A stretch of 20,305 bases of DNA from a virus (Duplodnaviria; Heunggongvirae; Uroviricota; Caudoviricetes). Shown here piece after piece: positions 2,548 to 18,985 of this stretch. The DNA lies in the IMG/VR virus record IMGVR_UViG_2695420624_000005; one strand, 5' to 3'. Position 1 is the first letter of the stretch, and the number at the start of each line of letters is the position of its first letter. The translations under genes and the position numbers were made by a program. The notes beneath the pieces are model-generated. The model worked only from the letters and a program-made list of their open reading frames with translations, did not search any database and had not been told where the DNA came from.

Positions 2548-2578
2548 TTGCATGAGTTGCCCATCGATATGGGCAGCT

Positions 2579-3040
2579 CTATCTGCACTGCTCATTAATA
2601 TACTTCTGGGTTCCTTCCAGTTGTTTTTGCATAGTGATCAGCCTCTCTCTGAGGGTGAAATAATCCTGTTCAGCGGTGTCTGCCAGTCGGGGGGAGGCTG
2701 CATTATCCACGCCGGAGGCGGTGGTGGCTTCACGCACTGACTGACAGACTGCTTTGATGTGCAACCGACGACGACCAGCGGCAACATCATCACGCAGAGC
2801 ATCATTTTCAGCTTTCGCATCAGCTAACTCCTTCGTGTATTTTGCATCGAGCGCAGCAACATCACGCTGACGCATCTGCATGTCAGTAATTGCCGCGTTC
2901 GCCAGCTTCAGTTCTTTGGCATTTTTGTCGCGCTGGGCTTTATAGGTAATGGCGTTATCACGGTAATGATTAACAGCCCATGACAGGCAGACGATGATGC
3001 AGATAACCAGAGCGGAGATAATCGCGGTTACTCTGTTCAT
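2579..3040 (-). CDS. Rz: Rz inner-membrane spanin (i-spanin)
   Basis: [72 protein letters not shown]... matches lambda Rz (153 aa). Start overlaps the endolysin stop (ATGA). Confidence 0.9.
2638..2820 (-). CDS. Rz1: Rz1 outer-membrane lipoprotein spanin (o-spanin), embedded in the +1 frame of Rz
   Basis: 60 aa [60 protein letters not shown]: lipobox VVGC and a proline-rich tail, fully embedded in Rz as in lambda. Confidence 0.85.
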
Positions 3041-3534
3041 TGCTGACCCCACAAACAGATTTCACGCTCAATCTCACGACGAGTCATGAGACCTTTCCAT
3101 TGCTTACCGCCAGCATATGTCCAGCGACGTAACTGATCACATGCGCCTTTGATATCGCCCTGGTTTATTTTGCGAAGAAGCGTCGATGTTCTGAAATTGC
3201 CAGCACCCACGTTGTAAACGAATGAGTAAAGAGCGCCGCGCGTTGTTTCCGGTATATCGACTTCGATGTATGGGTTAATTTGTCTGGCGACAGTGGCAAG
3301 GTCTTTATTCAAGAGTGCTTTGCATTCTGCTTTGGTATACGTTTTACCGAGCATGATGTCTTTTCCTGTATGCCCGTGACATACGGTCCATACACCAACA
3401 ATATCTTTGTATGGTATGTAGCTGACACCTTCCAGACCATCGTTACCACTTGGGCCAGTGATTAACACTGATGCTATAGCAATTGCTCCGCCACCAATAG
3501 CAGCAGCAACGGCTTTTCGTAATGATGGAGGCAT
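3037..3534 (-). CDS. rrrD: SAR endolysin (phage 21 R21 / RrrD-type lysozyme)
   Basis: 165 aa; N-terminal signal-anchor-release segment [20 protein letters not shown] followed by a lysozyme domain (…VCHGHTG…[17 protein letters not shown]…); matches R21/RrrD as recalled. Start overlaps the holin stop. Confidence 0.85.
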
Positions 3535-3749
3535 TATTCACCTCTCGCAGCCTTGCGCTTATCTTCTTTAATCTTGAAATAAAGGTTTGTCAGGTACGTC
3601 AGCAGGCCAAATACCAGGCTACCCAGCACACCTATTGCTGCCCACTGTGAGGGCGTGACTTTATCGAGCAGCTGTAAAAACCAGTAACCGGCACTACCTG
3701 CTGAGGTGCCATAGGCGACACCCGTTGTTAACTTATCCATGGATTTCAT
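3534..3749 (-). CDS. essD: Pinholin (phage 21 S21 / EssD-type class II holin) with MKSM dual-start motif
   Basis: [71 protein letters not shown], 71 aa with two TMDs; Met1 and Met4 give the antiholin/holin dual start. The ORF track extends to an upstream ATG at 3794, which I consider less likely. Confidence 0.85.
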
Positions 3750-4337
3750 AACCCCACCTCGCAGACAAAGCGGGTGTAAATTGAGGGAATACAACGTATC
3801 GCAAAAAAGCAGAAACGTAACAGACTCGGAGTCAGTGAATAACTCAGGTATTGAGTTATCAGCTAATATCGAGACTCAAAAAATGGAAAAACCAGCTCGA
3901 CGGCGGGTTTAAGCTGTGTGACGAAGTAACCACTCTTAACAGCATAACCAATTTTTTACGTACGTAAACCACTGAATGATATTTATGAGAATGCTACCGA
4001 GTGTTCAAAACACCACCACAAATACATAAGAAAACCTCAACAAATAACCAATAAATAATTTCCGGCGTTATTTTTAGTTAATTTAAATTAAACCATCGAA
4101 TTATAGACCCCCCATAAATAACAGCCATTAATATAAATTAGCTAATAGGTTTATTTTTGTTCAAATAAGAGCCATAAATAGGTTTCGATAGAAAAAGTTC
4201 AGATAAAAATAGAGATCTACTTCACAAATTAAATGAGAAACTAAAACTTACATCTTGAAATAATCACATTGATTAGATGAATATTTATCGCGCAGTGACA
4301 TCATTTTTTAATAATAGTTCAAAAAAAAGGGCTCACG

Positions 4338-5420
4338 ATGAAAAAATTAACAGTGGCAATTTCTGCTGTAGCTGCATCAGTACTGATGGCGATGTCTGCT
4401 CAGGCAGCTGAAATTTATAATAAAGACAGTAACAAGCTGGATCTGTACGGGAAAGTTAATGCTAAGCACTACTTCTCCTCTAATGATGCAGATGATGGTG
4501 ATACTACTTATGCCCGTCTTGGCTTCAAAGGTGAAACCCAAATCAACGATCAACTGACTGGTTTCGGTCAGTGGGAATATGAATTCAAAGGCAACCGCGC
4601 TGAATCTCAAGGTTCCTCCAAAGATAAAACCCGTCTTGCCTTCGCTGGCCTGAAATTCGGTGACTACGGCTCCATCGATTACGGCCGTAACTACGGTGTA
4701 GCATACGACATCGGTGCGTGGACTGACGTCCTGCCAGAATTCGGTGGTGACACTTGGACTCAAACAGATGTGTTCATGACTGGTCGCACCACTGGTGTTG
4801 CAACTTATCGTAACAACGACTTCTTTGGTCTGGTTGATGGTCTGAACTTTGCTGCTCAGTATCAGGGTAAAAATGACCGCACTGACGTAACTGAAGCTAA
4901 TGGTGATGGTTTCGGTTTCTCCACTACTTATGAGTATGAAGGATTCGGTGTAGGTGCAACCTATGCTAAATCTGATCGCACTAATAATCAGGTTATCTAC
5001 GGTAACAACGGTCTGAATGCTTCTGGTCAAAATGCTGAAGTATGGGCAGCTGGTCTGAAATATGATGCGAACAACATCTATCTGGCCACCACCTATTCTG
5101 AAACCCAGAACATGACTGTTTTTGGTAATAACCATATTGCCAACAAAGCACAAAACTTCGAAGCTGTTGCACAATATCAGTTCGACTTCGGCCTGCGTCC
5201 ATCCGTTGCTTACCTGCATTCTAAAGGAAAAGACTTGGGTGTTTGGGGTGATCAGGACCTGGTTGAATATGTTGATGTAGGTGCAACCTATTACTTCAAC
5301 AAAAATATGTCCACTTTTGTTGACTACAAAATCAACCTGATTGATAAGAGCGATTTCACGAAAGCATCTGGCGTTGCTACCGATGATATCGTTGCTGTAG
5401 GTATGGTTTACCAGTTCTAA
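4338..5420 (+). CDS. nmpC: Outer-membrane general porin, NmpC/OmpD (Lc) family, apparently intact
   Basis: 360 aa with signal peptide [29 protein letters not shown], porin motifs throughout and the C-terminal ...VAVGMVYQF. Opposite strand to the surrounding late genes; the preceding roughly 590 bp is very AT-rich. Confidence 0.85.
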
Positions 5421-5556
5421 TTTGATTACTAAAAGATATGTTGTGGGAGGCTTTGCCTCCCCAACATATAAGTGGCTCCCTCAAGCCACTTCCTTTAGAA
5501 GCACAACCTTGCTTCTAACTATACAAACCTTCTGTTATATATTACCCTTTATTTTT

Positions 5557-5582
5557 GGGGGCGTTTCAACGCCCCATTTTTA
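5557..5582 (+). terminator. Intrinsic terminator downstream of nmpC
   Basis: GGGGCG-TTTCAA-CGCCCC hairpin followed by ATTTTTAAT; two further hairpins (GGGAGGC/GCCTCCC near 5446..5462 and AGTGGCT/AGCCACT near 5472..5491) lie between the nmpC stop and the Q stop. Confidence 0.6.
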
Positions 5583-5608
5583 ATAACTTTTAGTAAATAA
5601 TTGGCGTA

Positions 5609-5992
5609 TTAATTAGAGTTATTAACAACGATATCCATCTCTAACCGGATATCTAATGCCATTAACATCCCTTCAATTATGCCCTCAGCCTTCTGTAACC
5701 TTTTCCCGATATAACCATCAGAGCAGCAATGCTTACCTGCCAGTGACATGAATGTCATACCAACTACATAATAATCTACTAATAAATCGTGCAAATCGCT
5801 GTTGTTCTTTTTCAGACGGGCCATGCACCCGCAAATGATCATCGCGTCATCGTCACAACATTGCGGGCGAGATTTTACTTTTGAAGGAATTAATCCCTTA
5901 AAACCGGCGGCAATGGACGACCAGGTCACATCTTCATGATTATTAGCCGCCCACGCTCCCCAACGCTCAAGAACCATCTGAATATCACGCAT
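5609..5992 (-). CDS. quuD: Late-gene antiterminator Q (phage 21/82-type; QuuD-like)
   Basis: [127 protein letters not shown] with a Cys-rich zinc-binding core; position is upstream of the lysis cassette. The ORF track's start at 6007 is an upstream in-frame ATG. Confidence 0.85.
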
Positions 5993-6077
5993 CAACTTAC
6001 TCCACAAAAATCAGACCAGAACGCCAATTACAAGCAAAAATCAATAAAACAGTATTAGTTGATTGTTATCTCTGACT

Positions 6078-6215
6078 TCATACTCCTGCTCCTGTCAGGG
6101 TTTTGGCGTAATTCTTCAGTATTCGGTAATCGGTCAAAACAGAACCGGGGAAACGATATAAGCGCAGACGCCCCCAGCGGTGGCGAAGAAGTTCTGCTAT
6201 ATTAAACTCAAACAT
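6078..6215 (-). CDS. ylcG: Small protein, YlcG-like (45 aa)
   Basis: Hand translation of the minus strand: [45 protein letters not shown], stop at 6078..6080. Its ATG shares a nucleotide with the rusA stop (TGATG). Below the ORF-track size cut-off; name from memory. Confidence 0.45.
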   Translation of the reverse strand: MFEFNIAELLRHRWGRLRLYRFPGSVLTDYRILKNYAKTLTGAGV

Positions 6216-6577
6216 CATTCATTCCCCATTTCGGTGATGGTCAGTTCCAGCCTCCCACCTTTGGTAACAGGCATCTTCACAACGCGGTAATCAACGACCT
6301 GAGCATCATCCAGCCAGAAACCTGCTTTAGTGAGTGCGTCAAAAGCGGCTTTTTGCAGATTATCCAGGTCACGGCGACGGCGATCCGGCATGTGGCACTC
6401 AATGCGGATTTTCACAGGCATAGCCAGGCCGATATCCAGCATTGCGCTTTTAATGATTCGGGCGACGTTATCGCGGTATGCCTGCCCCTCTGCACTGACG
6501 TGCGTGCGCCCGCGATTATGGCGGTAATAGCGATTATTGCTCGGAGGCCAGGGTAATGTGATACTGTAGGTATTCAC
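6215..6577 (-). CDS. rusA: Holliday-junction resolvase RusA
   Basis: 120 aa [51 protein letters not shown]...[31 protein letters not shown], the RusA sequence as I recall it. Confidence 0.9.
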
Positions 6578-6864
6578 GCCTTAATAACCCCCTCTTTCAG
6601 CCAGATAACCTGTGTTCTCGCCATACCTTCCAGCGCGCATTCTTTTGCATATGCAGCATCGACAAAATGTGTGCGGCGGTCGATTTCGTCGTGGCAGGCA
6701 GAACATGCAATGGTGGCAATCAGGTCTGGCGGTTTGATACCGGTACCGCACAATCCAGCCAGCCGGATATGTGCCAGTACAGACGTTTCAGAATTGCCAT
6801 TACATACGCCAGGGATTCTTACCTGGCATTCCCGACCACGCGCTGCTTTTCTCAAATCAGCCAT
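6574..6864 (-). CDS. ybcO: YbcO-like protein (DUF1364, Cys-rich putative nuclease)
   Basis: [67 protein letters not shown]...; start ATG lies 3 nt from the ninE stop and the stop overlaps the rusA start. Confidence 0.75.
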
Positions 6865-7027
6865 GATTCCTCCTTGCTGCCAGTCGCAACCATTTTTTAT
6901 CAACCAGGCTAGCGGTATATCCGAGCAGTGTTGGTATTTCGGATGGCTTCAGCTCAGGCTTACGCTTACGACGATTTGATACTCTGTAGATGTGTCCGTT
7001 CATGACACGAATAAGCGGTGTAGCCAT
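6857..7027 (-). CDS. ninE: NinE
   Basis: Hand translation: [56 protein letters not shown] (56 aa). Its ATG overlaps the ybcN stop (TAA at 7027..7029). Confidence 0.7.
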   Translation of the reverse strand: MATPLIRVMNGHIYRVSNRRKRKPELKPSEIPTLLGYTASLVDKKWLRLAARRNHG

Positions 7028-7482
7028 TACGCCTCCTGCTTGTCGCGGAGCAGCTGGAACTCGCAGCTCTGCGGAATAGTCAGGTGGCAGCCAATATTCA
7101 CCGCCCAGGCTTCAACCTTACACAGGAAGACATACATCTCTCCGGTATCAAGATCGGAGGTATGGCGTAACGACTGGATAGTGGTGATATCACCGGTTAC
7201 GACATCAACCAGGTCTTTGGTTTCATAACCGAGATATGTGTGTTTGAGAGCATCTTTTACCCAAGCTGGAGTGGCGAACGTTTTACCCCTGCTGATGAGG
7301 TATTCACTGATTTCGCTGTACCACATGTGGCTGAGTGCATTCTGGGAAAGACTGCGTTTCTCACGCCACGGTTTAAGCACCATGCGAAAGCATTTGCCCT
7401 CCTCCAGATAAGGCTGGATCTGCCGACCGATAGCGGTGAAGTTGCCGCGATGTAATTTGATGCCGTCTTGTGAGAGGTTCAC
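7027..7482 (-). CDS. ybcN: YbcN-like protein (nin-region protein; reported as a DNA base-flipping protein)
   Basis: 151 aa, GTG start preceded by GGAGGTG; [62 protein letters not shown]... Confidence 0.75.
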
Positions 7483-7696
7483 GCTTCACCTCCGCAGAGG
7501 TCAAACGCTAGATGCAAAGAATTGCAGGTGCATTTCTGCATCTGTGAAGGGAGAAGAGAGTTTGGATTGTATGTGCGCATAAACGTCCCCGTTTAGCGCA
7601 GAAGTCACCGGAGTTGTTCAGGCTCCGGTGACATAATTATGCCGTGTTGATTTCCCAAAATCAAAATCGATAGAATTGCTCCTTCTTAAAACACTT

Positions 7697-8494
7697 TTAC
7701 TCTCTGGAAGCTTTTCTTATCTCTCTTGGTGTTATATTAAAACGATTATGAAATCTTTCAGTAAAACGAGAAGGACACTTATAACCATTTTCTCTGGCAA
7801 TCTCGCTTATAGGTTTTACCGTCGTTTGTATAGCAGACAACGCATTATTTAACCTCACATCGTCCAGTATACTTTGGAAACTTACCCCCTCGCTTGCTAG
7901 ACGGCGATGTAATGTAGAAACAGAAATGTAGAGATATCGAGCAACCTTGTTTGCTGTCCATTTTGTGCCGGGTTCGGATAGCAGCAGGTTATAACAACGA
8001 CTTATCAATGATTGTTTACTATATGATAAAAGTAAATGATTAACATGATTCACTCCTAACGAAAGTAGAACGCCCATTGCTAAGTGCTCCTGAATTTTAG
8101 TTGAGAAGCCTCGGGAAACAGATGTTTTTAGTTGCTCCCAACAATATATTAACTCAGGATTCTGAGGTAAAAAGAAACTTGTTTTGTTACGTATTTGATC
8201 AGTTACCGTATAAAGTTTTTGGAAACTCTCAATTAAATCAATGGGTAAGTAAAGCATTTCTGCAAGATAAAGCCCTGCTTCAGGATAATTCTCAATATAA
8301 AATTCATAACCACAAGGAAATAATATTATTTGATTATTATCAACAGTTAAAGTATGCGTCTCCCAATTGATAACTTTCTTTCCCTGACGGATACGACACA
8401 AAGCTGGCATAAGAGGCTTAACCCTATGAATCTCATGATGTTTATGCATCCGTATTTCTTCGATCTTTAAGTTAGTCTTACCTCTTGCCAGCAT
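7697..8494 (-). CDS. ybcM: AraC/XylS-family transcriptional regulator (YbcM-like)
   Basis: 265 aa; C-terminal AraC-type HTH (…[82 protein letters not shown]…); the gene is visibly AT-rich. Confidence 0.8.
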
Positions 8495-8503
8495 ACTCTC
8501 ACC

Positions 8504-9055
8504 CTACTTTATCTCATAAACTGGTGTTATCTCAGCGGTTGCGATTTTATTAGCATTAAGCATATAACCAACTAACGCTCCGCTGGAGTTAGAATCTACA
8601 GGAATCTTTTCAGTTTTTAGAGCCCATACTTTAAACTGGTAATGATGTGGTTTATCTCCTTTAGGAGGACATGCGCCACCAAACCCAGCATAGCCAAAAT
8701 CATTTCGGCCTTGAACAGCACCAGTCGGCAGTTTTGTTCCATCACGTCTCCCTGCATCAACGGGCAAATATGTTATTGTTGCTGGAATATTAACAACAGT
8801 CCAATGCCACCAACCACTGCCTGTAGGTGCATCTGGATCATATACAGTTACGGCAAAGCTTTTGGTACCTTCAGGAACACCAGACCAGGTTAATGAGGGC
8901 GATGTATTACCACCTTCACACCCAAATCCAGAAAAGACATGAGACGTTGTAAGTTGCTCTCCTGTTTTTATTTCATTACTAGTGACCTGAAATGCTGCAG
9001 CCTGCGCAGAAAATGTTATGAATGCCAATACAGTTGAAACGATAAGTGTTTTCAT
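8504..9055 (-). CDS. ybcL: Periplasmic PEBP/RKIP-family protein (YbcL-like)
   Basis: 183 aa with signal peptide MKTLIVSTVLAFITFSAQA; PEBP-like motifs (…VYDPDAPTGSGWWHWTVVNIP…GACPPKGDKPHHYQFKVWAL…). Confidence 0.8.
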   Translation of the reverse strand: MKTLIVSTVLAFITFSAQAAAFQVTSNEIKTGEQLTTSHVFSGFGCEGGNTSPSLTWSGVPEGTKSFAVTVYDPDAPTGSGWWHWTVVNIPATITYLPVDAGRRDGTKLPTGAVQGRNDFGYAGFGGACPPKGDKPHHYQFKVWALKTEKIPVDSNSSGALVGYMLNANKIATAEITPVYEIK

Positions 9056-9519
9056 AAAAACCTCTTTGTTATGACCTATCGTTATTTTATTTGATATTCC
9101 TTTATCTCATTATGCATAAAGGCGCAATGTTTATGCAAAAGCAATCACAATTGTACCCCCAACCCAATTATTTGCCACAATATACACAAAGCACATTGAT
9201 ACTATCTAAAAACTCTGCTTTATTATTAGTAATACCTACGAAAGTCGGTGTTATTTTTTAACCTACCATTCAAAATACGTGACATACACCATTTTGCTCA
9301 TAATAATTTGTCACGTATTTTCAGTATTTGAATCTGCGACCAAGAGTTCTCACCTAACAAATGATTAAGATTGTATAGCTCATTTACTACCCCAATACAG
9401 CCGTACAAAACTCGCTTGTGGGAGCAAACAAAGTAATTACCCATTAAGTTTCGTCAAAGATAATTAATTCTGTCTTGCACTTTATCACCATAGCATAACT
9501 TAAAATCCGAGATCATTAT

Positions 9520-11046
9520 TTAGAAATAAATCTCACCATCAACCATATATTTGAGAGCACTTATCGCCTGCTGGGCGGATATTACTTTCATTAAAGGATA
9601 GTGTTTAAAAACAATGCCATTCATAAAATAGATATCACAGGTTTTATTATCCGTATTAATTATGATTTTTTCGAATGTTTTATAGGCAAGTGTACGGCAT
9701 AACTCTCGTCCATTTTTACTGGTTAAGTCAATAGCATAAAAATCACTGAATGAATTTACACCTTTACTCTTCAAAGTTTTCAATGATACCGAAGCCCTTC
9801 GTAATTCCTTATCTAATAGTCTTATTTTCTCTGCTATAGCGGTAACTTCAGGCGCGACAGACAATGCAACGATTAAATTATTAATTTTCATCTGAAGCTC
9901 AATAATTTTTAACTCTAAAGTTTAATTAGCATCTTTCTTGTTTTCAACTGGTTGAATTTTGCTACAATTAAAAAGCAATTCATTAATGATATTATAATCA
10001 ACCAAATCTCTTTTTATTGATGGCCTGTCACATCGATGTAATCTTCTCATCGGACAAACATAATAGCCATGCAAACTTCCAGATACCGCATGAACAATCA
10101 TGGTATTACCACAAGCCTCACACTTCATAACTGTTCGAAGTAGATTTATTAGCATAGGATTCTTGCTACTATTGCTAATACCAAAAGGTGCCAACCGAAT
10201 TTCCTGTACAGCGTAAAACAAATCATCTGATATAACTCTGGGATAATAGCCAGCGATTTCACTTATCCCTTTCCCTCTTGCACGATATGAAGGTACGCAT
10301 ATACCTATCAGAGCTTTATTCGCTAATAATTTTTCAATTACAGAAGGTCCCCATGCACTTTCTTTTCCTGAGAAATTCTTTACAGCATGATCATTTAAAT
10401 ACTTGGCTATTGCATTCAATGAGCGCCTTTCCATCCTGAGTTTAAAAATTAGCTCAATAGTTTTCACCCTGTCGGGGTCTGGAACAAAAGCCGTTCTTTT
10501 GTCATCTAAGGAGAGCCATCTCGGACAAGACGCCGTCATAATCGTACCTGATTCCATTGCATCCTGCCGTTTTTTCTTCCATGATAATTTAACCCGACTT
10601 GACTTTATCTCGCTTTCTTCATTTGCCCTTTGTGCTATAAGTATGGCTTTTATTAATGAATATGGCTCATTCAAAGAGTCAATATTATAGACTGTATTGT
10701 CGCAAAGAGTTATAACATCAATACCGTGATTCAAAATCAATTTCAGACGTTCAATCGCTTCACCGACTTTTTCTCTTGAAAGTCTGTCCAGACTTTCAAC
10801 TAACAATGTAGTTCCTGGCAATATATAACCATGCTCTATAGCATCTAAAAATTCCGAAAAAGCTCCTGATTGTGCATGCTTTCCTTTGAATGCACTTAAT
10901 CCTAAATCTTCATATGTTATGGTATCAAGATAATAATCACTATTTACCTTTAACCATTCAGCAATAAGTCTTCTCTGTCGGTTTAATGAGTCACCAGACA
11001 TCTGACCTGGTGATGAAAATCGCATATATGCTATGGCTTTTTTCAT
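9520..11046 (-). pseudogene. ybcK: Large serine recombinase (YbcK-like) split by a single in-frame TAA into 374-codon and 123-codon ORFs
   Basis: ORFs 9922..11046 (resolvase-type N-terminus MKKAIAYMRFSSPGQ…, recombinase domain, Cys-rich zinc-ribbon region) and 9520..9891 are in the same frame, separated by the TAA at 9922..9924 plus 10 sense codons. Read through, the total is 508 codons. Confidence 0.6.
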
Positions 11047-11300
11047 GGTGACACCTGCTAACGTATGCTTTTATAAACCTTAGTGGTGGGATATAATTTT
11101 TGTTTAATTTTTATTTAAAAAGACAATTAAGGTCACATTATCTTGAATATACAACAATAATCGTATTGCAATTTTCTTACGCCATAATCTTGAAAGCACA
11201 AAAGAATACATAAAAAATAAAGACATTAACAAAAAGCATAAAACGAGGCTCATATAAATATAAGAGCCTCCATATTTTAGTCGTTTAGAAACAAATTATT

Positions 11301-11636
11301 TTAATGTGGTGTGCTTCGTGACAATAAATTAATAACCAACACACCGGCACAAATCAACATCATACCTATAATGGCTGGCAGGTCCAGCCGTTGGCCGAAA
11401 AATCCCCATGACAGTAAACTAATCAGGACAATACCGACTCCTGACCAGATAGCATAAGCAATCCCTGTAGGAATATAAGCCAGCGTCTGAGCTAATAACC
11501 AGAATGATGCACAATAACAAATAATTGTACCAACAGATGGCCATAACCGTGTAAAACCTTCTGAAAACTTCATTAAGGTTGTACCAATGACCTCTGCAAG
11601 TATTGCACCACCAAGATAAATATAAGGGTTCATAGC
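11301..11636 (-). CDS. emrE: Small multidrug resistance (SMR) efflux transporter EmrE
   Basis: MNPYIYLGGAILAEVIGTTLMKFSEGFTRLWPSVGTIICYCASFWLLAQTLAYIPTGIAYAIWSGVGIVLISLLSWGFFGQRLDLPAIIGMMLICAGVLVINLLSRSTPH, 110 aa with four TMDs and the catalytic Glu14. The ORF track's 128 aa form uses an upstream ATG. Confidence 0.9.
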   Translation of the reverse strand, partial: AMNPYIYLGGAILAEVIGTTLMKFSEGFTRLWPSVGTIICYCASFWLLAQTLAYIPTGIAYAIWSGVGIVLISLLSWGFFGQRLDLPAIIGMMLICAGVLVINLLSRSTPH

Positions 11637-11700
11637 ATATTCTTTCCTGTTCAAACTGGAGAGAATTGTACTACAGTTTGAACTCAACTCACCTGTTTCA

Positions 11701-12003
11701 TCATTGTGTTCCCATTGATGTTCTTTTATATACCCTCAATACCCGTTTCATCGCGGCACTCTGGCGACACTCCTTAAAAATCAGATTCGTGCTCACCTTT
11801 CCTTCCCGTTCTTCTCTGGTAGCGAACCGGTAATACACCGTTCGCCAGACCTTACCATCAACGACCAGGATTCCTGCCCGCGCCATTTTAGCCGCAGCCT
11901 GATTTATGCTGGTTACGGTTGCGCCTGTTACCGCGGCAACGTCCTGTGCACAGAAGCTCTTATGCGTCCCCAGGTAATGAATAATTGCCTCTTTGCCCGT
12001 CAT
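11701..12003 (-). CDS. ren: Ren (Rex-exclusion) protein
   Basis: MTGKEAIIHYLGTHKSFCAQDVAAVTGATVTSINQAAAKMARAGILVVDGKVWRTVYYRFATREEREGK... resembles lambda Ren; start overlaps the P stop. Confidence 0.8.
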   Translation of the reverse strand: MTGKEAIIHYLGTHKSFCAQDVAAVTGATVTSINQAAAKMARAGILVVDGKVWRTVYYRFATREEREGKVSTNLIFKECRQSAAMKRVLRVYKRTSMGTQ

Positions 12004-12701
12004 ACACTTGCTCCTTTCAGTCCGAACTTAGCTTTAATTTCTGCGATCTTCGCCAGAGCCTGTGCACGATTTAGAGGTCTACCGCCCATAACAGGAAGTT
12101 GTTTTACTGGTTCAGGTATCGTCTCACCACGGTTAATTCGCGCTGTCATACAGGTCAGTTCATCGGCAGCCTTGCGCCGTAATTCCGCGTCAGTCAGCGC
12201 ATTGGCCCGCATGTTCTGGTACAAGTTGGTAACCAACCAGTAATGCGCGTTCGATTTCCACGGATAAGACTCTGCATCCGGATACAGGCCACGCTTCCGG
12301 CAATACTCGTAAACCATATCAACCAGCTCGCTGACGTTTGGCAGCCCGGCGTTAACAGATGCTTCTTCCCGGCACCAGGCGACAAACTGCCCGGGTGATG
12401 GCAGGAATGGTCGATTCTGCCGACGGGCTACGCGCATTCCAGCGTTAACCTGTTCCATTGTGGTGATCCCGTTTTCCCGGAAAGCCAGAACCCACTGGCG
12501 GCGGATTTCGTTCAGTTCATTCTGGTCACGGTTAGCCAGGCTCGCCGGGAAAGTTGCCAGTAACTGGCTTAACACACCGTTGATGATCTGCGCTACCTGC
12601 TGTACCTGTGGCTTTTCGTCGTACTGTTCCGGCATGTTGTTGGCGATCCGGCGCATCTGCTCACAGTCAAAGTTAACCATCTGTGCGGCGATGTTTTTCA
12701 T
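12000..12701 (-). CDS. P: Replication protein P (DnaB helicase loader)
   Basis: 233 aa MKNIAAQMVNFDCEQMRRIANNMPEQYDEKPQVQQVAQIINGV...KAKFGLKGASV, near-identical to lambda P as recalled; start overlaps the O stop. Confidence 0.9.
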   Translation of the reverse strand: MKNIAAQMVNFDCEQMRRIANNMPEQYDEKPQVQQVAQIINGVLSQLLATFPASLANRDQNELNEIRRQWVLAFRENGITTMEQVNAGMRVARRQNRPFLPSPGQFVAWCREEASVNAGLPNVSELVDMVYEYCRKRGLYPDAESYPWKSNAHYWLVTNLYQNMRANALTDAELRRKAADELTCMTARINRGETIPEPVKQLPVMGGRPLNRAQALAKIAEIKAKFGLKGASV

Positions 12702-13627
12702 AGCTCCACCCCGTAAATCCAGTCAGTGTTCGTCAGGTCGAGTTTTGGTTTGCCGGCTGTCACGCCAGCCTGTTGCTTGTTTCGGTTGATTTCGAGCTGG
12801 GTCCACTTGTCGCGGAGTTTGGCCGGACTTAGCACGTTACCGGACCAGAAGTTGTCCTGGCATGCCCAGCGGAACAGCACGCACATGTCGCGGTGGTTAC
12901 GTCCGTCACGTTCACGCATCAGGCGGATATCGTTAGCCCACCCTGCAAAATTCGGTTTTCTGGCTGATGGCGCGATGGTCTTCACCATGTCAAACATCCA
13001 CTCTGCGGCGGTCAGGTCTTCTGCTGTCCCCCACTTGCTGCCGCTCTGAATTGCAGCATCCGGTTTCACCACAGGAAGATCGTTTTCTGGTTGGTCAGAG
13101 GATTCGCCAGAATTCTCGGACGAAAAAGGTTTTATATTGTCTTTTGTTAGTTTGTCTTTTGTGTTTACCTGATTCGGGTAAACGCCTTTACCTGATTTGG
13201 GTAAACTTTTTTTACCTGATTCAGGTAAATTTACCTCTTTCAGGTAAACTTTATTTTTCTTACCTGATTCGGGTAATGTTGACCATTCACTGACCACATT
13301 ATTAATGCCGATATTCCGCCCGCTCTGAATAAGAATCCCACGCTTTACCAGAACGCTTTTTGCAGCAGAACACTTGTGCGGCAATATCCCGGTCAATTCG
13401 GAAAGTTGCTCGTTGCTCACCCAATCCAGTCTTTTATTAAAGCCATATGTTTTGCGCATGACAGCCAGGAAGACCAGAAGCTGGTGCTGTGTTAATCCGG
13501 CCAGCATCACAGCTTCCAGCAACTCATTTGCAATGCGCGTATAACCATCGTCGAGATCTGCCACGCGCCGCTCCTTTTGTGCCACATCCGGCACTGGAAA
13601 ATTGAATATCTCAGCAGTGTTTGCCAT
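12698..13627 (-). CDS. O: Replication initiator protein O (iteron-binding; N-terminal domain diverged from lambda O)
   Basis: Probable start is the ATG at 13627 with the strong SD GGGAGGA 5 nt upstream: MANTAEIFNFPVPDVAQKERRVADLDDGYTRIANELLEA... (compare lambda O MTNTAKILNF…ERNVADLDDGYARLSNMLLEA). The ori iterons lie inside the coding region. The ORF track extends to an upstream ATG at 13717. Confidence 0.85.
   Translation of the reverse strand: MANTAEIFNFPVPDVAQKERRVADLDDGYTRIANELLEAVMLAGLTQHQLLVFLAVMRKTYGFNKRLDWVSNEQLSELTGILPHKCSAAKSVLVKRGILIQSGRNIGINNVVSEWSTLPESGKKNKVYLKEVNLPESGKKSLPKSGKGVYPNQVNTKDKLTKDNIKPFSSENSGESSDQPENDLPVVKPDAAIQSGSKWGTAEDLTAAEWMFDMVKTIAPSARKPNFAGWANDIRLMRERDGRNHRDMCVLFRWACQDNFWSGNVLSPAKLRDKWTQLEINRNKQQAGVTAGKPKLDLTNTDWIYGVEL
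13165..13276. repeat. Replication origin iterons: five copies of a 17-bp palindrome (TTACCTGA-T-TCAGGTAA and variants) inside O, next to an AT-rich stretch (about 13125..13164)
   Basis: Copies at 13165..13181, 13188..13204, 13212..13228, 13231..13247 and 13260..13276; the third is a perfect palindrome. The AT-rich block TTTTATATTGTCTTTTGTTAGTTTGTCTTTTGTG lies on the downstream side relative to O transcription, the same layout as ori-lambda. Confidence 0.8.
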
Positions 13628-13713
13628 AATTCCTCCCGCAATGAGTGTGTTACGATTTGCACCTGAAAGTCGGTTCTGTTCGCGCAGACCGGCTTTCGCC
13701 ATTTCCGAACCTG

Positions 13714-14259
13714 TCATATTGCCCCCAGCATGGTGGTGACCATCGCCATCAGTGGACCAGCCAAATCCGGGTCCACACGAAACATCGACACAATGCCTTC
13801 ACTCATCTCCTTCAGTTTCTGGTGGCGTGGTGCGTTGAGAATGACAGCCTGTTTTGCCTCACTGAGTTCCTTTTCCATTTCAGCCAGCCGAGCCATGTAG
13901 CTATCCTGCTCAACCAGGTGGCCGCGATATTCCAGCGGTAGTACCGCCAGAATTGCCGGGGTCAGTTCACGCACGTTATTTCGGTATTTTTCAGAATCGA
14001 ATTTGTTATCGAGGAAGCGGAACAGCTTCTGGCGTGCACGGCTGACATCATCAGGGAAATCGATGGTGCCGCCGCCCTGCTCCCGATACTCATTCACAAT
14101 GAGTGCGGCAACAACATCCTGATTATCTGCAGCCGACCAGGCGCGAACGGCATCACGGATTTTTTCGTGGCCTGGCGCCTGTTTTGTTTGAGAACGATTT
14201 ATCACCGCAGTCGGGCTAAATCCGCTAGTCTGTTGGTATGTAAGTGGTTGCATAGTCAT
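13714..14259 (-). CDS. YdaT-like protein occupying the cII position (function unknown)
   Basis: 181 aa; contains …ALIVNEYREQGGGTIDFP…, reminiscent of the YdaT family found next to ydaS/cro-like genes in lambdoid prophages. No resemblance to lambda CII. Family call from memory. Confidence 0.4.
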   Translation of the reverse strand: MTMQPLTYQQTSGFSPTAVINRSQTKQAPGHEKIRDAVRAWSAADNQDVVAALIVNEYREQGGGTIDFPDDVSRARQKLFRFLDNKFDSEKYRNNVRELTPAILAVLPLEYRGHLVEQDSYMARLAEMEKELSEAKQAVILNAPRHQKLKEMSEGIVSMFRVDPDLAGPLMAMVTTMLGAI

Positions 14260-14283
14260 TGCCTTATCAGTTAACGCCGCAGT

Positions 14284-14517
14284 TTAGGCGGCAGAATTAC
14301 TCGCGTTAAACAATGGTGCGAGGTCGGGACGAATATCTGCTGGTTTAATCTTTCCACCAGTGGCTGAGACAATTTTCATTACATAGCGGGCATCAATTCC
14401 GCCACCGTGTAGCCAACGCCAAACTGTGGGTTGGGCTACACCGCATAGATCTGCCAGTCGTTTTTGACTACCTGTAATACTGATTGCGAGTTGAATGGTT
14501 TGATTTGTCATTATCAA
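14284..14517 (-). CDS. cro: Cro-like repressor (YdaS/Cro HTH family)
   Basis: 77 aa with HTH SQKRLADLCGVAQPTVWRWLHGG; divergent from cI across an operator-bearing intergenic region. Confidence 0.7.
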   Translation of the reverse strand: MIMTNQTIQLAISITGSQKRLADLCGVAQPTVWRWLHGGGIDARYVMKIVSATGGKIKPADIRPDLAPLFNASNSAA

Positions 14518-14621
14518 TTCCTATTGGTATTGCAATGAATGAATAATAGCAATGCGTATTAATCCAAGCAATAGCAAAACGTGTTTTGACCATCAATACG
14601 CAAGCGTATAAATTAAAACTT
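14518..14621. promoter_or_regulatory. Immunity-region control region: PR (for cro), PRM (for cI) and OR operators
   Basis: Minus strand PR: -35 TTGCTT (plus 14565..14570), 17-bp spacer, -10 TATTAT (plus 14542..14547). Plus strand PRM: -35 TTGACC (14586..14591), 17-bp spacer, -10 TAAATT (14609..14614), placing the start at or next to the cI ATG. Operator-like 16-mers AATAGCAATGCGTATT (14544..14559) and AATACGCAAGCGTATA (14595..14610); only a weak half-site lies between them. Confidence 0.55.
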
Positions 14622-15314
14622 ATGAAAAAAGAAACTCTTGCTGATCGCTTAAACCTAGCGATGGAACAATCTGGAATGTCTCAAGGCGCTCTTGCAAAGG
14701 CGTCTGGCGTAGCTCAACCCACAATCTGGAGACTGACAAGCGGCAACGCTCGCGGCTCAACAAAAATTGTTGAAATAGCTAATGCATTGGGTGTTCGAAC
14801 AGAATGGCTCTCATCAGGCATAGGCCCGATGAGAAATGACGGTCAACAATCAGGGAAGCCTGCTGTCAGCCATTCAAAATACTTCAAAATTGACGTTCTT
14901 GATATAGAAGTCAGTGCCGGGCCGGGAGTCATCAACCGTGAGTTTGTAGAAGTTCTACGCTCGGTTGAGTACTCGTTTGACGATGCTCGTCACATGTTCG
15001 ATGGTAGGAAGGCAGAAAATATCCGCATCATTAACGTACGCGGTGACAGCATGTCAGGAACGATCGAACCAGGTGATCTTCTGTTCGTTGATATCACGGT
15101 TAAATCTTTCGACGGTGATGGTATCTATGCGTTTCTGTATGACGACACAGCCCATGTAAAGCGCCTGCAAATGATGAAGGATAAGCTGCTAGTTATCTCT
15201 GATAACAAGAGCTACTCACCGTGGGACCCGATCGAGAAAGACGAGATGAACCGGGTATTCATCTTCGGGAAAGTCATCGGAAGCATGCCGCAGACGTATA
15301 GGAAGCATGGGTAG
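14622..15314 (+). CDS. cI: CI-type prophage repressor (N-terminal HTH plus LexA-like S24 autopeptidase domain)
   Basis: From the ATG at 14622: MKKETLADRLNLAMEQSGMSQGALAKASGVAQPTIWRLTSG… and C-terminal …RGDSMSGTIEPGDLLFVD…HVKRLQ (Ser/Lys dyad). The ORF track's TTG start at 14586 seems less likely. Confidence 0.85.
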   Translation: MKKETLADRLNLAMEQSGMSQGALAKASGVAQPTIWRLTSGNARGSTKIVEIANALGVRTEWLSSGIGPMRNDGQQSGKPAVSHSKYFKIDVLDIEVSAGPGVINREFVEVLRSVEYSFDDARHMFDGRKAENIRIINVRGDSMSGTIEPGDLLFVDITVKSFDGDGIYAFLYDDTAHVKRLQMMKDKLLVISDNKSYSPWDPIEKDEMNRVFIFGKVIGSMPQTYRKHG

Positions 15315-15425
15315 TGAAGGACGTGTCAACTCTATTTTGTAAGCTATCCAGACTCACAGTTGCAGATCGACGAGTAACTTACATACAGCACAAAAAAACA
15401 ATATGCACGTGCTTTTAGACTAGAC

Positions 15426-15440
15426 TTACCATAATGGTAA
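15426..15440. promoter_or_regulatory. 15-bp perfect palindrome TTACCAT-A-ATGGTAA overlapping the first ATG of the toxin gene (candidate antitoxin operator)
   Basis: Read directly from sequence; MqsA antitoxins are known to bind ACCT…AGGT-type palindromes in their own promoters, and this site has an ACCA…TGGT core. Confidence 0.4.
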
Positions 15441-15844
15441 CAAGTATGATTCTTAGCAGATATGTGGGAACTCCTCCCCGTGATGGCGAGGACAGAAAGA
15501 TTCAAGGTGGTCCGCTTTATTTAGATATCATTGATTTGATTGATGAATGTGACACACTGCCTTGGACTAGACGGTGTATCAGGGATGTTCAATCGCTTTC
15601 TTTAGATGCAGATGACATCAAATCTATGGTGATAAAAGCAGTCACTAAAGGGAGATTTCTAGGTTCAGAATGGTGTCAAGGCAGTAAACCAGGTGTATGG
15701 GCAGCTTGTGATGCTTATAGCTTTGAGCACTCATTTTGGTGCCAAGCTATGCATAAAGAACTTAATAACGAGTTCTACATTAAATTTTTTGTAAACATTA
15801 CTGGCAATGTAGTGCTTACAGTATCTCTTCATCTCTCTAATTGA
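15434..15844 (+). CDS. MqsR-family toxin (putative mRNA interferase) with an N-terminal extension; start codon uncertain (15434 or 15446)
   Basis: C-terminal region …LSLDADDIKSMVIKAVTKGRF…FYIKFFVNITGNVVLTVSLHLSN resembles MqsR (…LGLDFDGMCNVIIGLSESDF…VYLKITVIHDVLIVSFKEK, from memory). Toxin gene precedes the antitoxin gene as in mqsRA. Confidence 0.6.
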   Translation: MVTSMILSRYVGTPPRDGEDRKIQGGPLYLDIIDLIDECDTLPWTRRCIRDVQSLSLDADDIKSMVIKAVTKGRFLGSEWCQGSKPGVWAACDAYSFEHSFWCQAMHKELNNEFYIKFFVNITGNVVLTVSLHLSN

Positions 15845-15868
15845 GTGATGATAAATGAGGATTTTTAT

Positions 15869-16456
15869 ATGAGAAACAACAACATATGTCCAGTTTGTGG
15901 TGTAGGTCATCTCACCGTGGAGATGGAGTATGATGATGTTACTTATAAAGGGGAAACAAAAAATCTCCCAATAAGGTTTTCTGTGTGTGATCAATGTGGT
16001 TCGGAAACTGCCACACCAGTCGATTTACGAGAAAACAAACGAATTTTCAATGAATACAAAAAGTCTATCGATGGACTTTTAACAGGAAAAGAATTAAAAA
16101 AAATTAGAACTGAAGTATGGATGATAACCCAGCAAAAGGCATCCTCTATATTTGGTGGGGGGCCTAAGGCATTTTCCAAGTATGAATCTGATGATGTCAT
16201 TCAATCAGAAGCAATGGATAAACTGATGCGTTTAGCAGCAGAAGTTCCTGATGCATTCAAAAGGTTACGGGAATTATCTGGCGAAATCAAAGTTGAAAGA
16301 ACAGTCTCATCATCTAAATCTTTACCTATATGGAAACCTGAAGCAAAAGCACAATTTGAAAACGATGATCAGGGATTTGACAGCAAATCACCAGCCCAAA
16401 CAAAAATGAATCAAACATCAATAAAGATAAAAACTGTTGCTAAGCGGGTAGCATGA
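15869..16456 (+). CDS. MqsA-family antitoxin (zinc-ribbon plus XRE-HTH) with a C-terminal extension of roughly 65 aa
   Basis: Preferred start is the ATG at 15869 (GAGGA 8 nt upstream); the ORF track starts at the GTG at 15845. N-terminal CPVC…CDQC zinc ribbon; HTH …LTGKELKKIRTEVWMITQQKASSIFGGGPKAFSKYE… matches MqsA …LTQKEASEIFGGGVNAFSRYE…; low-complexity tail after about residue 135. Confidence 0.75.
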   Translation: MRNNNICPVCGVGHLTVEMEYDDVTYKGETKNLPIRFSVCDQCGSETATPVDLRENKRIFNEYKKSIDGLLTGKELKKIRTEVWMITQQKASSIFGGGPKAFSKYESDDVIQSEAMDKLMRLAAEVPDAFKRLRELSGEIKVERTVSSSKSLPIWKPEAKAQFENDDQGFDSKSPAQTKMNQTSIKIKTVAKRVA

Positions 16457-16956
16457 TGAATGAACTTCTTAGATCAGCAATAGACGCATTATCAATAATG
16501 CATATCAATATCAGAGAATCTAACTTTGCTTTTTCTGAAGGGTATAATAGCTTTAACTTCAACAGCATAAATAAGCAAACACAATCATTTCGTAAGATAA
16601 AAAAAATCGAAGCTATTGAATTAGTAAGTGACGATGACTCATTAAAAAATGAGCTATATTACTCTTTTCACTACTCAGTTGGGCTTAGATTTATTGCAAA
16701 ATCCGAAGAAACATCTAAAGACGAAAATGATGTTGATACAATTTTTTCTATAGAAGCAATTTTTGAGGCGATATATCGCTCAAAGAGAGAATTATCTAAA
16801 GAAGAGTTAGAAGAATTTGCTAAGCAAAATGTAGGTTTTAATGTATGGCCTTTTTGGCGAGAGTATGTTCAAAACAGCACATCCAGAATGGGAATTACTA
16901 CAATAGCTATACCATTCTTTAAATTCAATAAATCAGACATACCTTCATTAGATTAA
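16453..16956 (+). CDS. SecB-like chaperone (predicted third component of a toxin-antitoxin-chaperone module)
   Basis: 167 aa; start overlaps the antitoxin stop (ATGA). C-terminal half …DTIFSIEAIFEAI…FNVWPFWREYVQNSTSRMGITTIAIPFFKF resembles E. coli SecB …FLCEVQQGGIFSIAGIEG…[30 protein letters not shown] (from memory). Size matches SecB (about 155 aa). Confidence 0.55.
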   Translation: MMNELLRSAIDALSIMHINIRESNFAFSEGYNSFNFNSINKQTQSFRKIKKIEAIELVSDDDSLKNELYYSFHYSVGLRFIAKSEETSKDENDVDTIFSIEAIFEAIYRSKRELSKEELEEFAKQNVGFNVWPFWREYVQNSTSRMGITTIAIPFFKFNKSDIPSLD

Positions 16957-16970
16957 ATTCAAATATAACT

Positions 16971-16997
16971 CCCGGCTACCGTGCCGGGTTTTCTTTT
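16971..16997 (+). terminator. Intrinsic terminator ending the cI/TAC transcription unit
   Basis: CCCGGC-TACCGT-GCCGGG hairpin followed by TTTTCTTTT, 15 bp after the stop of the SecB-like gene. Confidence 0.7.
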
Positions 16998-17119
16998 GCC
17001 CTCCCCCCATCACACAAACCGTTCAAAAAACCACCACGACCTCACTTCAGTTATCGCTATGCGATGCAAGTCACAAAATTAATTCTTTTTGCTATCAAAC
17101 ATTTAATATCAAAACACAT

Positions 17120-17170
17120 CAACTAATAGCAATAAGCATTGATATCACCAATAGCAATAGCTATTATCAC
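17120..17170 (+). promoter_or_regulatory. PL-like promoter with OL operators
   Basis: -35 TTGATA (17139..17144), 17-bp spacer, -10 TATTAT (17162..17167). The perfect 16-bp palindrome AATAGC-AATA-GCTATT (17150..17165) overlaps the spacer and -10; a second related 16-mer AATAGCAATAAGCATT lies at 17124..17139. Same half-site family as in OR. Confidence 0.6.
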
Positions 17171-17273
17171 CATATCGCAACAACACAACGATACGGCAAC
17201 CACCTGATTCACCGTTGCGATGACCGCTTAGATCCGCAGCTTGAATTTCAGCAGGCTTCGGGGAGTGCGAGGG

Positions 17274-17651
17274 ATGAAACGGACGCGTGAACGTCGGTGT
17301 GACCAGCTGAAATCAACTCAACATTTCATACCTTAGTCGCTTCAACGAGGCGGCTTAGTTATGACAACCGGCGGCCATCCACCGCCTGAATACGCGCAGA
17401 AGTCTTTATATGTTCAGCAGCCCAGCTTACGGGCAGGAGTTTTTATGGTTCATCAACATTACGGAACGCAGACCGTTAATCGCGGTGCGGTCATGCCAGG
17501 AATGCTGGTCAAACGCAAAGATGGTACCTGGACTGCATCAGCTAATTTACACGGACGACTTTATCTGCATCGCGGCATTGAGCGCACTTATACCCGTGAC
17601 TTGCTCGTGGAAGTTTTTCTCGACGGACGCGGCAACGGTCTGAATCACTAA
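17274..17651 (+). pseudogene. Candidate N-like antiterminator frame interrupted by an in-frame TAG (20-codon Arg-rich peptide, then a 96-codon ORF at 17361..17651)
   Basis: 17274..17336 encodes MKRTRERRCDQLKSTQHFIP followed by TAG; the same frame continues into the 96 aa ORF whose C-terminus …RLYLHRGIERTYTRD… loosely resembles the lambda N C-terminus …RTWYSKPGERGITCSG…. Position is right after PL/OL. Weak evidence. Confidence 0.3.
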
Positions 17652-17726
17652 TCCCCTTTCCTGTTTTCCGAATCAGCCTGGCATTCCGCGGGCGATTTTT
17701 TCACAGCCATTTTCAGGAGTTCAGCC

Positions 17727-18887
17727 ATGAACGCTTATTACATTCAGGATCGTCTTGAGGCTCAGAGCTGGGCGCGTCACTACCAGCAGATCGCCCGTGA
17801 AGAGAAAGAGGCAGAACTGGCAGACGACATGGAAAAAGGCCTGCCCCAGCACCTGTTTGAATCGCTATGTATCGATCATTTGCAACGCCACGGGGCCAGC
17901 AAAAAAGCCATTAAAGAGTTTGGATTAGGCAGAGACAGGCGAATCGCAATCACTGAAGCTATACAGGCCAACATTGAGTTATTTTCAGGACACAAACACA
18001 AGCCTCTGACAGCGAGAATCAACAGTGATAATTCCGTTACGTTACATTCATGGCTTGATCGCTACGAAAAAATCCTGGCCAGCAGAGGAATCAAACAGAA
18101 GACACTCATAAATTACATGAGCAAAATTAAAGCAATAAGGAGGGGTCTGCCTGATGCTCCACTTGAAGACATCACCACAAAAGAAATTGCGGCAATGCTC
18201 AATGGATACATAAACGAGGGCAAGGCGGCGTCAGCCAAGTTAATCAGATCAACACTGAGCGATGCATTCCGAGAGGCAATAGCTGAAGGCCATATAACAA
18301 CAAACCCTGTCGCTGCCACTCGCGCAGCAAAATCAGAGGTAAGGAGATCAAGACTTACGGCTGACGAATACCTGAAAATTTATCAAGCAGCAGAATCATC
18401 ACCATGTTGGCTCAGACTTGCAATGGAACTGGCTGTTGTTACCGGGCAACGAGTTGGTGATTTATGCGAAATGAAGTGGTCTGATATCGTAGATGGATAT
18501 CTTTATGTCGAGCAAAGCAAAACAGGCGTAAAAATTGCCATCCCAACAGCATTGCATGTTGATGCTCTCGGAATATCAATGAAGGAAACACTTGATAAAT
18601 GCAAAGAGATTCTTGGCGGAGAAACCATAATTGCATCTACTCGTCGCGAACCGCTTTCATCCGGCACAGTATCAAGGTATTTTATGCGCGCACGAAAAGC
18701 ATCAGGTCTTTCCTTCGAAGGGGATCCGCCTACCTTTCACGAGTTGCGCAGTTTGTCTGCAAGACTCTATGAGAAGCAGATAAGCGATAAGTTTGCTCAA
18801 CATCTTCTCGGGCATAAGTCGGACACCATGGCATCACAGTATCGTGATGACAGAGGCAGGGAGTGGGACAAAATTGAAATCAAATAA
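17727..18887 (+). CDS. int: In-frame gam'-'int fusion: first 62 codons of GamS joined to lambda integrase from about residue 34 to the C-terminus
   Basis: [60 protein letters not shown] matches the short form of lambda Gam; from …[46 protein letters not shown]… to …[28 protein letters not shown] the protein matches lambda Int. The GamS RBS (AGGAG) is retained upstream. No xis, bet or exo is present. Confidence 0.8.
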
Positions 18888-18985
18888 TGATTTTATTTTG
18901 ACTGATAGTGACCTGTTCGTTGCAACAAATTGATAAGCAATGCTTTTTTATAATGCCAACTTAGTATAAAAAAGCAGGCTTCAAC
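18888..18985. other. attL-type prophage/host junction: lambda P' arm plus the 15-bp att core (18961..18975), then host B-arm sequence
   Basis: 18890..18960 is the reverse complement of the lambda P' arm (…TATCAGTCAAAATAAAATCA, …GCATTGCTTATCAATTTGTTGCAACGAACAGGTCAC…); TTAGTATAAAAAAGC is the reverse complement of the lambda core GCTTTTTTATACTAA; the following AGGCTTCA matches the attB arm TGAAGCCT. Confidence 0.8.

Follow-up and report, generated by a model that had tools for sequence, protein, structure and literature searches.

A gam'-'int chimeric reading frame, probably a deletion scar, in a grounded DLP12-family prophage of Escherichia coli carrying a lambda-type integration module

Analysis of a stretch of 20,305 nucleotides from the IMG/VR virus record IMGVR_UViG_2695420624_000005 (the window hereafter) revealed an open reading frame in which the beginning of a lambda-type gam gene continues in frame as int. 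The chimera is real and was read correctly in a preliminary description made from the sequence alone. It lies in a cryptic, or grounded, DLP12-family prophage with an integration module of the lambda type. In all likelihood the reading frame is a deletion scar, an ordinary by-product of prophage decay, in which the in-frame chimera is neutral cargo.

Nucleotide alignment with lambda gam and int placed the junction at 17912-17913: the gam sequence ends at 17913 and the int sequence begins at 17912, with an overlap of 2 nt (TA). The features of the chimeric gene, in window positions, are as follows.

17727-18887, plus strand: gam'-'int chimeric open reading frame, 386 amino acids, about 44 kDa (list of open reading frames and Pfam)
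17727-17913, plus strand: gam' segment, GamS codons 1-62 (alignment to lambda gam; match to PDB 5mbv/2uuz)
17912-17913, plus strand: deletion junction, TA common to gam nt 186-187 and int nt 96-97 (lambda alignments)
17914-18887, plus strand: 'int segment, K33-K356 of a lambda-type Int (99.6% identity to lambda int)
17715-17719, plus strand: GamS Shine-Dalgarno sequence AGGAG, 7 nt 5' of the ATG and the same as in lambda

The gam part differs from lambda gam at 3 of 186 nt, with 60 of 62 residues identical to lambda GamS, and the int part differs from lambda int at 4 of 975 nt; because the differences are so few, both parts are taken to be homologous to their lambda counterparts and not chance matches. 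A Pfam search of the chimera returned the Gam profile over positions 1-64 of 98 (E 1.8e-38), Arm-DNA-bind_1 over positions 38-74 of 74 only, Phage_int_M, Phage_int_SAM_1 and a complete Phage_integrase domain (E 2e-40). The Gam origin of the N-terminus, claimed in the preliminary description, is thus confirmed by the nucleotide alignment, with which the Gam Pfam match agrees, and the same holds for the start at the GamS start codon with its native ribosome binding site (ATG and AGGAG as in lambda) and for the 62 encoded Gam residues, the gam sequence reaching through 17913. The further claim that Int follows from about residue 34 to its end stands as regards the in-frame continuation to the native stop codon, but the entry point is K33, one residue off.

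In genomes with identical DNA, PGAP annotates the two halves as two partial pseudogenes, and the exact chimeric protein carries the label "integrase" in public contigs. A literature search found no paper mentioning this fusion, and no other Gam-Int fusion family was present among 378 homologues.

Comparison of the window with complete E. coli chromosomes gave three near-perfect matches, the closest being strain Z1323HEC0011 with 3 mismatches, where the element measures ~23.6 kb and is located between ybhB and ybhC (lambda attB). Identification of the window with strain E2 was rejected because the left 4.4 kb differ. From the ybhB side, the element begins with attR, IS remnants, a gene for an AraC-type regulator, IS1 and a tail-fibre fragment/terminase fragment, followed by nohD, ylcI, iss, the lysis genes, an ompC-like porin gene, quuD and the nin region, and then by ybcK, emrE, ren, P, O, a ydaT-like gene and a cro-like gene; on the other strand there follow the gene for a CI-like repressor, a three-gene TAC-like module, kil, gam'-'int and attL. 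This is the gene set and order of DLP12 (nohD, essD-rrrD-rzpD, porin, quuD, rusA, ybcO, ninE, ybcN, ybcM, ybcL, ybcK, emrE, ren), as established from the PGAP annotation of identical DNA and from 99.8% identity to the argU prophage of strain 442/2. The element was found not to be integrated at argU by IntD; it sits at ybhB/ybhC, bounded by lambda att sites and holding the remnant of a lambda-type int. The N-terminal fragment of a terminase large subunit abuts the tail-fibre fragment, remnants of IS1 and IS3 are present, and ybcK, of the serine-recombinase family, harbors a nonsense codon private to the window. PGAP annotation of identical DNA lists for the element neither head nor tail genes nor, apart from the int segment, any tyrosine integrase or excisionase; an Rfam scan of the window gave no match.

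The attachment site attL lies next to the chimera.

18888-18985, plus strand: attL (B-O-P'), P' arm and core GCTTTTTTATACTAA at 18961-18975 (minus strand), joined to the B arm on the ybhC side

Both the core at 18961-18975 and the P' arm are identical to lambda, the alignment running to 18975 with all four mismatches inside int, and the attL described earlier as intact is indeed so. Outside the window, attR survives beside ybhB with the core CAACTTTTTTATACTAACTTG and a P arm that is largely lambda-like (source genome, L007 4530-4544). The element is therefore bounded by attL in the window and by attR in the source genome, and it combines these att boundaries with loss of recombinase and directionality functions and of virion genes, the hallmarks of a grounded prophage.

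Relative to lambda, the interval equivalent to 28786-32925 (4,140 bp) is absent, and with it the 3' end of gam, bet, exo, the ea genes, xis and the 5' end of int. The preliminary description had proposed a deletion of this extent, from the gam 3' end through bet, exo and xis into int; the assignment is made by synteny and is backed by two intact relatives. In strain 537-20 (L005), which has a prophage at this ybhC site too, the prophage is complete: kil and attL are separated by gam, bet, exo, several genes of the ea region, xis and an entire int, and compared with it 4.6 kb are missing from the window. The prophage of strain 442/2 (L006) lies at argU, has an intD of its own and appears complete; its 99.8% identity to the window extends over 544-17913 and ends exactly at the junction base, beyond which L006 goes on with intact gam, bet and exo. 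Both relatives have full sets of head and tail genes, unlike the element in the window. The 2-nt microhomology at the junction points to illegitimate recombination rather than a site-specific event. Recombination by Int at a secondary site was considered as the cause of the deletion and rejected, given that the junction does not lie in an att-like overlap and only TA is common to the two sides.

We propose that the ancestor was a mosaic, DLP12-like genome with a lambda-type int/xis/att module, which occupied attB-lambda in the ybhB-ybhC interval. One illegitimate recombination event at the 2-nt TA would then have cut out some 4.1-4.6 kb, with gam codon 63 and int codon 32 as the outermost codons lost, and bet, exo, the ea-region genes, xis and the promoter PI would have gone in the same deletion. 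The ends would have met in frame by chance (1 in 3), leaving the GamS start codon and ribosome binding site to drive a chimera of 386 amino acids.

Whether such a protein is made would depend on the early-left operon, for which the window contains the following elements upstream of the chimera.

14622-15314, plus strand: CI-like repressor gene, HTH and S24 LexA-type autopeptidase (Peptidase_S24, E 1.3e-18; HTH_3)
16971-16988, plus strand: GC-rich hairpin and following T-run, a short way 5' of pL, where the repressor/TAC-like operon probably terminates (terminator scan)
17122-17167, plus strand: candidate pL, TTGATA-17 nt-TATTAT at 17139-17167, with copies of the operator AATAGCAAT at 17125, 17150 and 17156 (promoter scan, 10/12)
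17445-17651, plus strand: kil, KilR-type cell-division inhibitor (phrog_294, E 4.8e-36; PF27398 KilR), directly 5' of the chimera in the same early-left operon

Exact copies of AATAGCAAT occur only at 14545, 17125 and 17150 in the 20 kb, once beside the divergent repressor/cro promoters and twice at the candidate pL, and matches with one mismatch number 19 against 8.6 expected. The operator motif also forms a cluster at 14517-14578 near the repressor. TTGATA/TATTAT is the best sigma-70-like site of the region, and the immunity-specific region stops near 17208. From this arrangement we infer that 17122-17167 is pL with its operator oL. The chimera is located ~560 bp downstream of this pL-like promoter, behind kil, and a sequence scan found no strong terminator between kil and the chimera. 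In lambda, PI sits in the xis region; because that region is deleted here, PI is gone. Expression of the chimera from pL, and not from PI, after RecA-stimulated cleavage of the repressor is plausible, in keeping with the original proposal. In the resting state the S24-type repressor would shut pL and keep the chimera silent; once SOS induction had set in, transcription from pL would run through kil into gam'-'int and probably on through attL.

The Int half retains all of its catalytic residues, R212, K235, H308, R311, H333 and Y342, as residues 242, 265, 338, 341, 363 and 372 of the fusion, and these six are invariant columns in an alignment of 66 sequences. The core-binding domain (Int residues ~65-169) is present, and PDB entries 2oxo and 1p7d were matched over their full length. 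The arm-binding domain (Int residues 1-64) is incomplete, residues 1-32 being swapped for Gam; the part that is kept is an alpha-helix, and the beta-sheet half is gone. PDB entries 1z1g/5j0n were matched from Int residue 31, and 1kjk only from residue 30. An alignment-based AF2 model (mean pLDDT 85, and >90 for about residues 104-386) comprises an N-terminal Gam helix at residues 2-38, a low-confidence and presumably disordered stretch at 38-62 that reaches the junction, an arm-binding domain reduced to the alpha-helix 71-86, without a beta-sheet, and core-binding and catalytic domains modelled with confidence. The geometry of the Gam part in this model was given little weight because MAFFT had set Gam residues against the Int N-terminus, and a single-sequence AF2 model was unusable (pLDDT 40).

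[quoted passage not shown] By analogy, the chimera could bind and cleave core sites or resolve Holliday junctions, and from the published domain work it follows that it would not bridge arm and core sites and would not support normal excision. Because half of the Int NTD and all of xis are missing, excision between attL and attR by the element's own products should be impossible, and the deletion would have irreversibly grounded an element that is devoid of virion genes. Lambda-type Int and Xis supplied in trans might still excise the element, attR being present. The earlier statement that the prophage looks locked in place is accordingly correct in that xis is gone, the Int NTD is cut and no second tyrosine integrase is annotated, but this lock is only one of several defects, the virion genes having gone as well.

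The Gam half keeps the long N-terminal helix, and the structures 2uuz and 5mbv match the chimera from residue 1. The C-terminal 36 of the 98 GamS residues are absent, so that the Gam profile is covered over positions 1-64 and not over the ~98 amino acids of full-length GamS. GamS is a dimer in which the N-terminal helix plugs the RecB ssDNA channel and the body mimics duplex DNA (PMC5218532). Since the chimera retains the RecB-channel helix and lacks about a third of the protein, Gam activity is doubtful, and the Gam function has probably been lost or much weakened. Formation of the GamL form is impossible, as the sequence upstream of the GamS start has been exchanged and a 1-nt insertion shifts it.

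With a good ribosome binding site and every catalytic residue kept, expression and some activity of the chimera are possible, and the question arises whether it serves as a functional, SOS-induced protein. It might act as a core-site binder and cleaver that blocks a superinfecting lambda-type Int via mixed tetramers, or as a RecBCD inhibitor via the Gam helix, perhaps multimerised by Int. The open frame behind a native ribosome binding site and a plausible regulated promoter would suit such a role, and so would the intact catalytic residues and core-binding and catalytic folds, given that the Int CTD by itself keeps core binding, cleavage and Holliday junction resolution (PMC9791396) and that the Gam part includes the helix occupying the RecB ssDNA channel (PMC5218532). 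GamS, however, acts as a full-length dimer (PMC5218532), residues 38-62 of the chimera are predicted to be disordered, the 378 homologues contain no other Gam-Int family, and no defence model matches the chimera. The population data, given next, also bear on this proposal.

Inspection of 5,426 complete E. coli genomes revealed the junction in 12 (0.2%), 11 of which are identical over 1.75 kb, and a lambda-type int running through to attL in 1,857, about a third. The exact protein is encoded on 311 public contigs (the index lists 417 blocks), and the six contexts shown after de-duplication have one gene order. Among the carriers are complete genomes of chicken and human origin (Korea, Japan and the USA) that were sequenced independently of one another, and carriers are near-clonal, with 4 mismatches in 23.7 kb between the loci L007 and L001. 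That the fusion arose by misassembly of two prophage regions, or as a laboratory construct, is a first impression encouraged by the common use of lambda gam and int as engineering parts; with an identical junction in independent complete genomes and in hundreds of draft assemblies, and with a natural mosaic prophage around it, between ybhB and ybhC and free of vector sequence, we consider such an origin extremely unlikely.

The chimeric reading frame is intact in all window-type carriers examined. Six sampled carrier contigs showed 0 differences in it, which leaves a test for selection without power, and scattered SNPs and 1-nt indels in the neighbouring genes. The carrier Z1323CEC0014 (L003) differs from the window at 22 positions of the reading frame, of which 19 are synonymous and 3 nonsynonymous. 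Purifying selection on the fusion was considered as the source of this 19:3 bias and rejected: the int part of the window shows 100% identity to undamaged int alleles of other E. coli (matches H39-H44), that of L003 is 100% identical to intact int in many strains, e.g. O103:H2 12009, and the pattern is therefore inherited from functional integrases. The differences between L003 and the window make up a patch of ~1.2 kb across the junction (17644-18812), with the reading frame open in both, and the T to G change of the junction-side base in L003 (I62S) matches native int sequence. The patch is what gene conversion with an intact phage copy as donor could produce; a search for a single intact prophage with both L003 flanking alleles gave no exact match on the left side, the best reaching 98.9%. 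Three histories could each account for the patch: conversion by way of a heteroduplex with a deletion loop, two conversions independent of each other, or a donor that had diverged and itself bore the fusion.

Two further alleles lack the full chimera. The related prophage that occupies this site in strain EC01 has another junction, from gam nt 84 to int nt ~142, which is out of frame and leaves an open reading frame of 44 amino acids; it could be a nested secondary deletion rather than an independent event. The cluster member P0132 is disrupted after Int residue ~70, leaving about 100 residues of protein. Among carrier identity, int alleles, EC01 and P0132 we found no evidence of selection on the fusion itself, at a diversity too low to demonstrate neutrality, and PADLOC reported no defence-system model matching the chimera. 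The lack of fusion-specific substitutions and of detectable selection, the out-of-frame EC01 junction and the disrupted P0132 thus add to the structural arguments against a functional SOS-induced chimera, which we regard as very improbable. We hold it to be no less improbable that the host has co-opted the protein as a pL-made, arm-independent Int core on a RecB-binding helix, with a dominant-negative effect on incoming lambda-type phages or a residual modulating effect on RecBCD.

Under the deletion-scar explanation the chimera would in all probability be neutral cargo, and its reading frame may have stayed open because the haplotype is young and because recombination with intact int alleles could renew the int segment. 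An overlapping explanation differs only in invoking selection for the loss, with the reading frame incidental: the deletion, and not the protein, may have been selected, grounding being a means of keeping immunity and cargo (iss, the ompC-like porin, emrE, the TAC-like module) and of escaping the dangers that excision or induction would bring. Such a benefit of grounding has already been hypothesized in the literature (PMC6379469), and repressor, replication and cargo genes have been kept here while virion genes were lost. The haplotype, on 311 contigs and in 12 of the 5,426 complete genomes, is widespread for a scar, but 0.2% carriers against about a third of genomes with lambda-type int through attL indicate that there has been no sweep, and the carriers are near-clonal locally, so that their frequency may track a successful host lineage. 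Likewise, the second distinct gam-to-int junction at the same site in EC01 speaks for this explanation, but might be nested and not independent. We consider selection for the deletion possible, if rather doubtful.

Our results provide a base-resolved case of lambdoid prophage grounding, in which one microhomology deletion would have removed Xis, the arm-binding half of Int, PI and Red and left both att sites intact. They also carry a warning for annotation, since hundreds of database entries give the name "integrase" to a protein that cannot be a normal integrase. The junction may be used as a marker for a haplotype of poultry- and human-associated E. coli, and the chimera offers a natural N-terminally truncated Int for the study of how the NTD controls the catalytic domain. 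It would matter more if it were expressed and acted on phage superinfection or on RecBCD.

[quoted passage not shown] Unlike the CTD, the chimera is natural and neither proteolytic nor engineered, and it still carries Int residues 33-64 (the NTD helix and coupler) together with 62 GamS residues. With lambda GamS (PF06064) it shares the start codon, the ribosome binding site and 60 of 62 residues, including the long helix, but it is without the last 36 residues. At the level of the element, the grounded lambdoid prophages DLP12, Rac, Qin and e14 exhibit the same damage to the recombination module, decay by deletion or IS elements, and retention of immunity and cargo (PMC6379469), whereas the lesion described here leaves an open chimeric frame. 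DLP12 proper is located at argU with intD; the present element occupies attB-lambda with a lambda-type int remnant, and its content from nohD to ren is DLP12-like. The "putative integrase" of Shigella flexneri 5 str. 8401 (P0015) likewise has the N-terminus of Int replaced, with another partner and breakpoint and a C-terminal frameshift. Together with the gam/int scar of EC01, which has another breakpoint and is out of frame, these comparisons single out the window-type scar as the only one among those compared that gives a full-length, open Gam-Int chimera.

Comparison of the window with related prophages revealed that most of it is shared with a prophage integrated at a different site. In E. 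coli 442/2 (NZ_CP076282.1), positions 12001-33953 cover window 544-17913 at 99.8% identity, including the putative toxin-antitoxin-chaperone (TAC)-like module, and belong to an apparently complete prophage of the DLP12 family located at argU with intD. At this level of identity the two elements are essentially one phage genome with two integration modules, intD/argU versus lambda int/attB, and constitute a clear case of module swapping.

Two related elements differ from the window at or across the gam/int junction. In the related prophage of E. coli EC01 (NZ_CM169500.1, 20428-21440), which occupies the same ybhC site, gam nucleotide 84 is joined to int nucleotide ~142, giving an out-of-frame junction that is 148 nt shorter; the deletion behind it was either secondary and nested or an independent gam-to-int event. 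In strain Z1323CEC0014, a divergent patch of ~1.2 kb (20345-21513, corresponding to window 17644-18812) spans the junction in an element otherwise near-identical to that of the window. The base beside the junction, changed from T to G, agrees with native int, and the int side of the patch is equal to intact alleles; the kil-gam side had an exact match in none of the 5,426 complete genomes searched. The pattern suggests that the patch may have arisen by gene conversion across a deletion heteroduplex.

In the stretch preceding the GamS start codon (window 17640-17726), a KilR-type kil allele stands where lambda has the GamL start region, and one inserted nucleotide, as compared with lambda, disrupts the GamL frame. 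The annotation of relatives contains the 98-aa GamS form only, and judging from these sequences the phage family of the window seems to make GamS alone.

Aberrant lambda-type integrases were also encountered among homologues of the chimera. In Shigella flexneri 5 str. 8401, Int residues 1-45 are replaced by an unrelated 46-aa N-terminus, and a frameshift is present at the C-terminal side as well, while a 377-aa integrase from E. coli harbors an internal 21-aa tandem duplication.

Further features of the element and its flank are as follows.

Retained and decayed features (window positions unless stated)
~291-790, second large deletion scar, tail-fibre fragment abutting terminase fragment beside nohD
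2254-2547, + strand, iss (increased serum survival lipoprotein, bor homologue), retained cargo
4338-5420, + strand, ompC/nmpC-like porin, retained cargo
9922-9924, - strand, ybcK nonsense codon (GAA to TAA, codon 375), private to the window
11301-11633, - strand, emrE, retained cargo
15446-16956, + strand, three-gene module immediately 3' of the CI-like repressor
4440-4760 of the source-genome locus (L007), retained attR outside the window, adjoining ybhB

The C core of attR differs by one change, CAACTTTTT in place of CAGCTTTTT. In its P arm the P1/H1/P2 part is near-identical to lambda, and ~55 bp proximal to Xis/Fis/H2 have clearly diverged from it.

The nonsense mutation cuts YbcK, of the serine-recombinase family, at residue 374 of 508; codon 375 specifies Glu in four related loci (the near-identical carrier L001, strain 537-20, E. 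coli 442/2 and L007). At the second scar, the terminase large-subunit gene is left as an N-terminal fragment (546-788) adjoining nohD, and a tail-fibre gene fragment that matches the EC01 tail fibre over window 2-551 abuts it. This scar is the removal of all head and tail genes, and it much resembles the nohD/aaaD/tfaD arrangement of K-12 DLP12. Within the retained cargo, iss may be relevant because the carriers are mostly poultry isolates.

The products of the three-gene module are a 132-aa protein with no family match, an antitoxin of the MqsA family (PF15731, E 2e-17), and a SecB-like protein whose matches to Pfam SecB and to PADLOC PD-T4-9_C (E 7e-4) are weak. Some carriers have a 1-nt deletion in the MqsA-like or SecB-like gene, which could be a sequencing error. 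The module looks like an uncharacterised TAC system and is a candidate prophage-encoded anti-phage defence, occupying the slot that rexAB holds in lambda.
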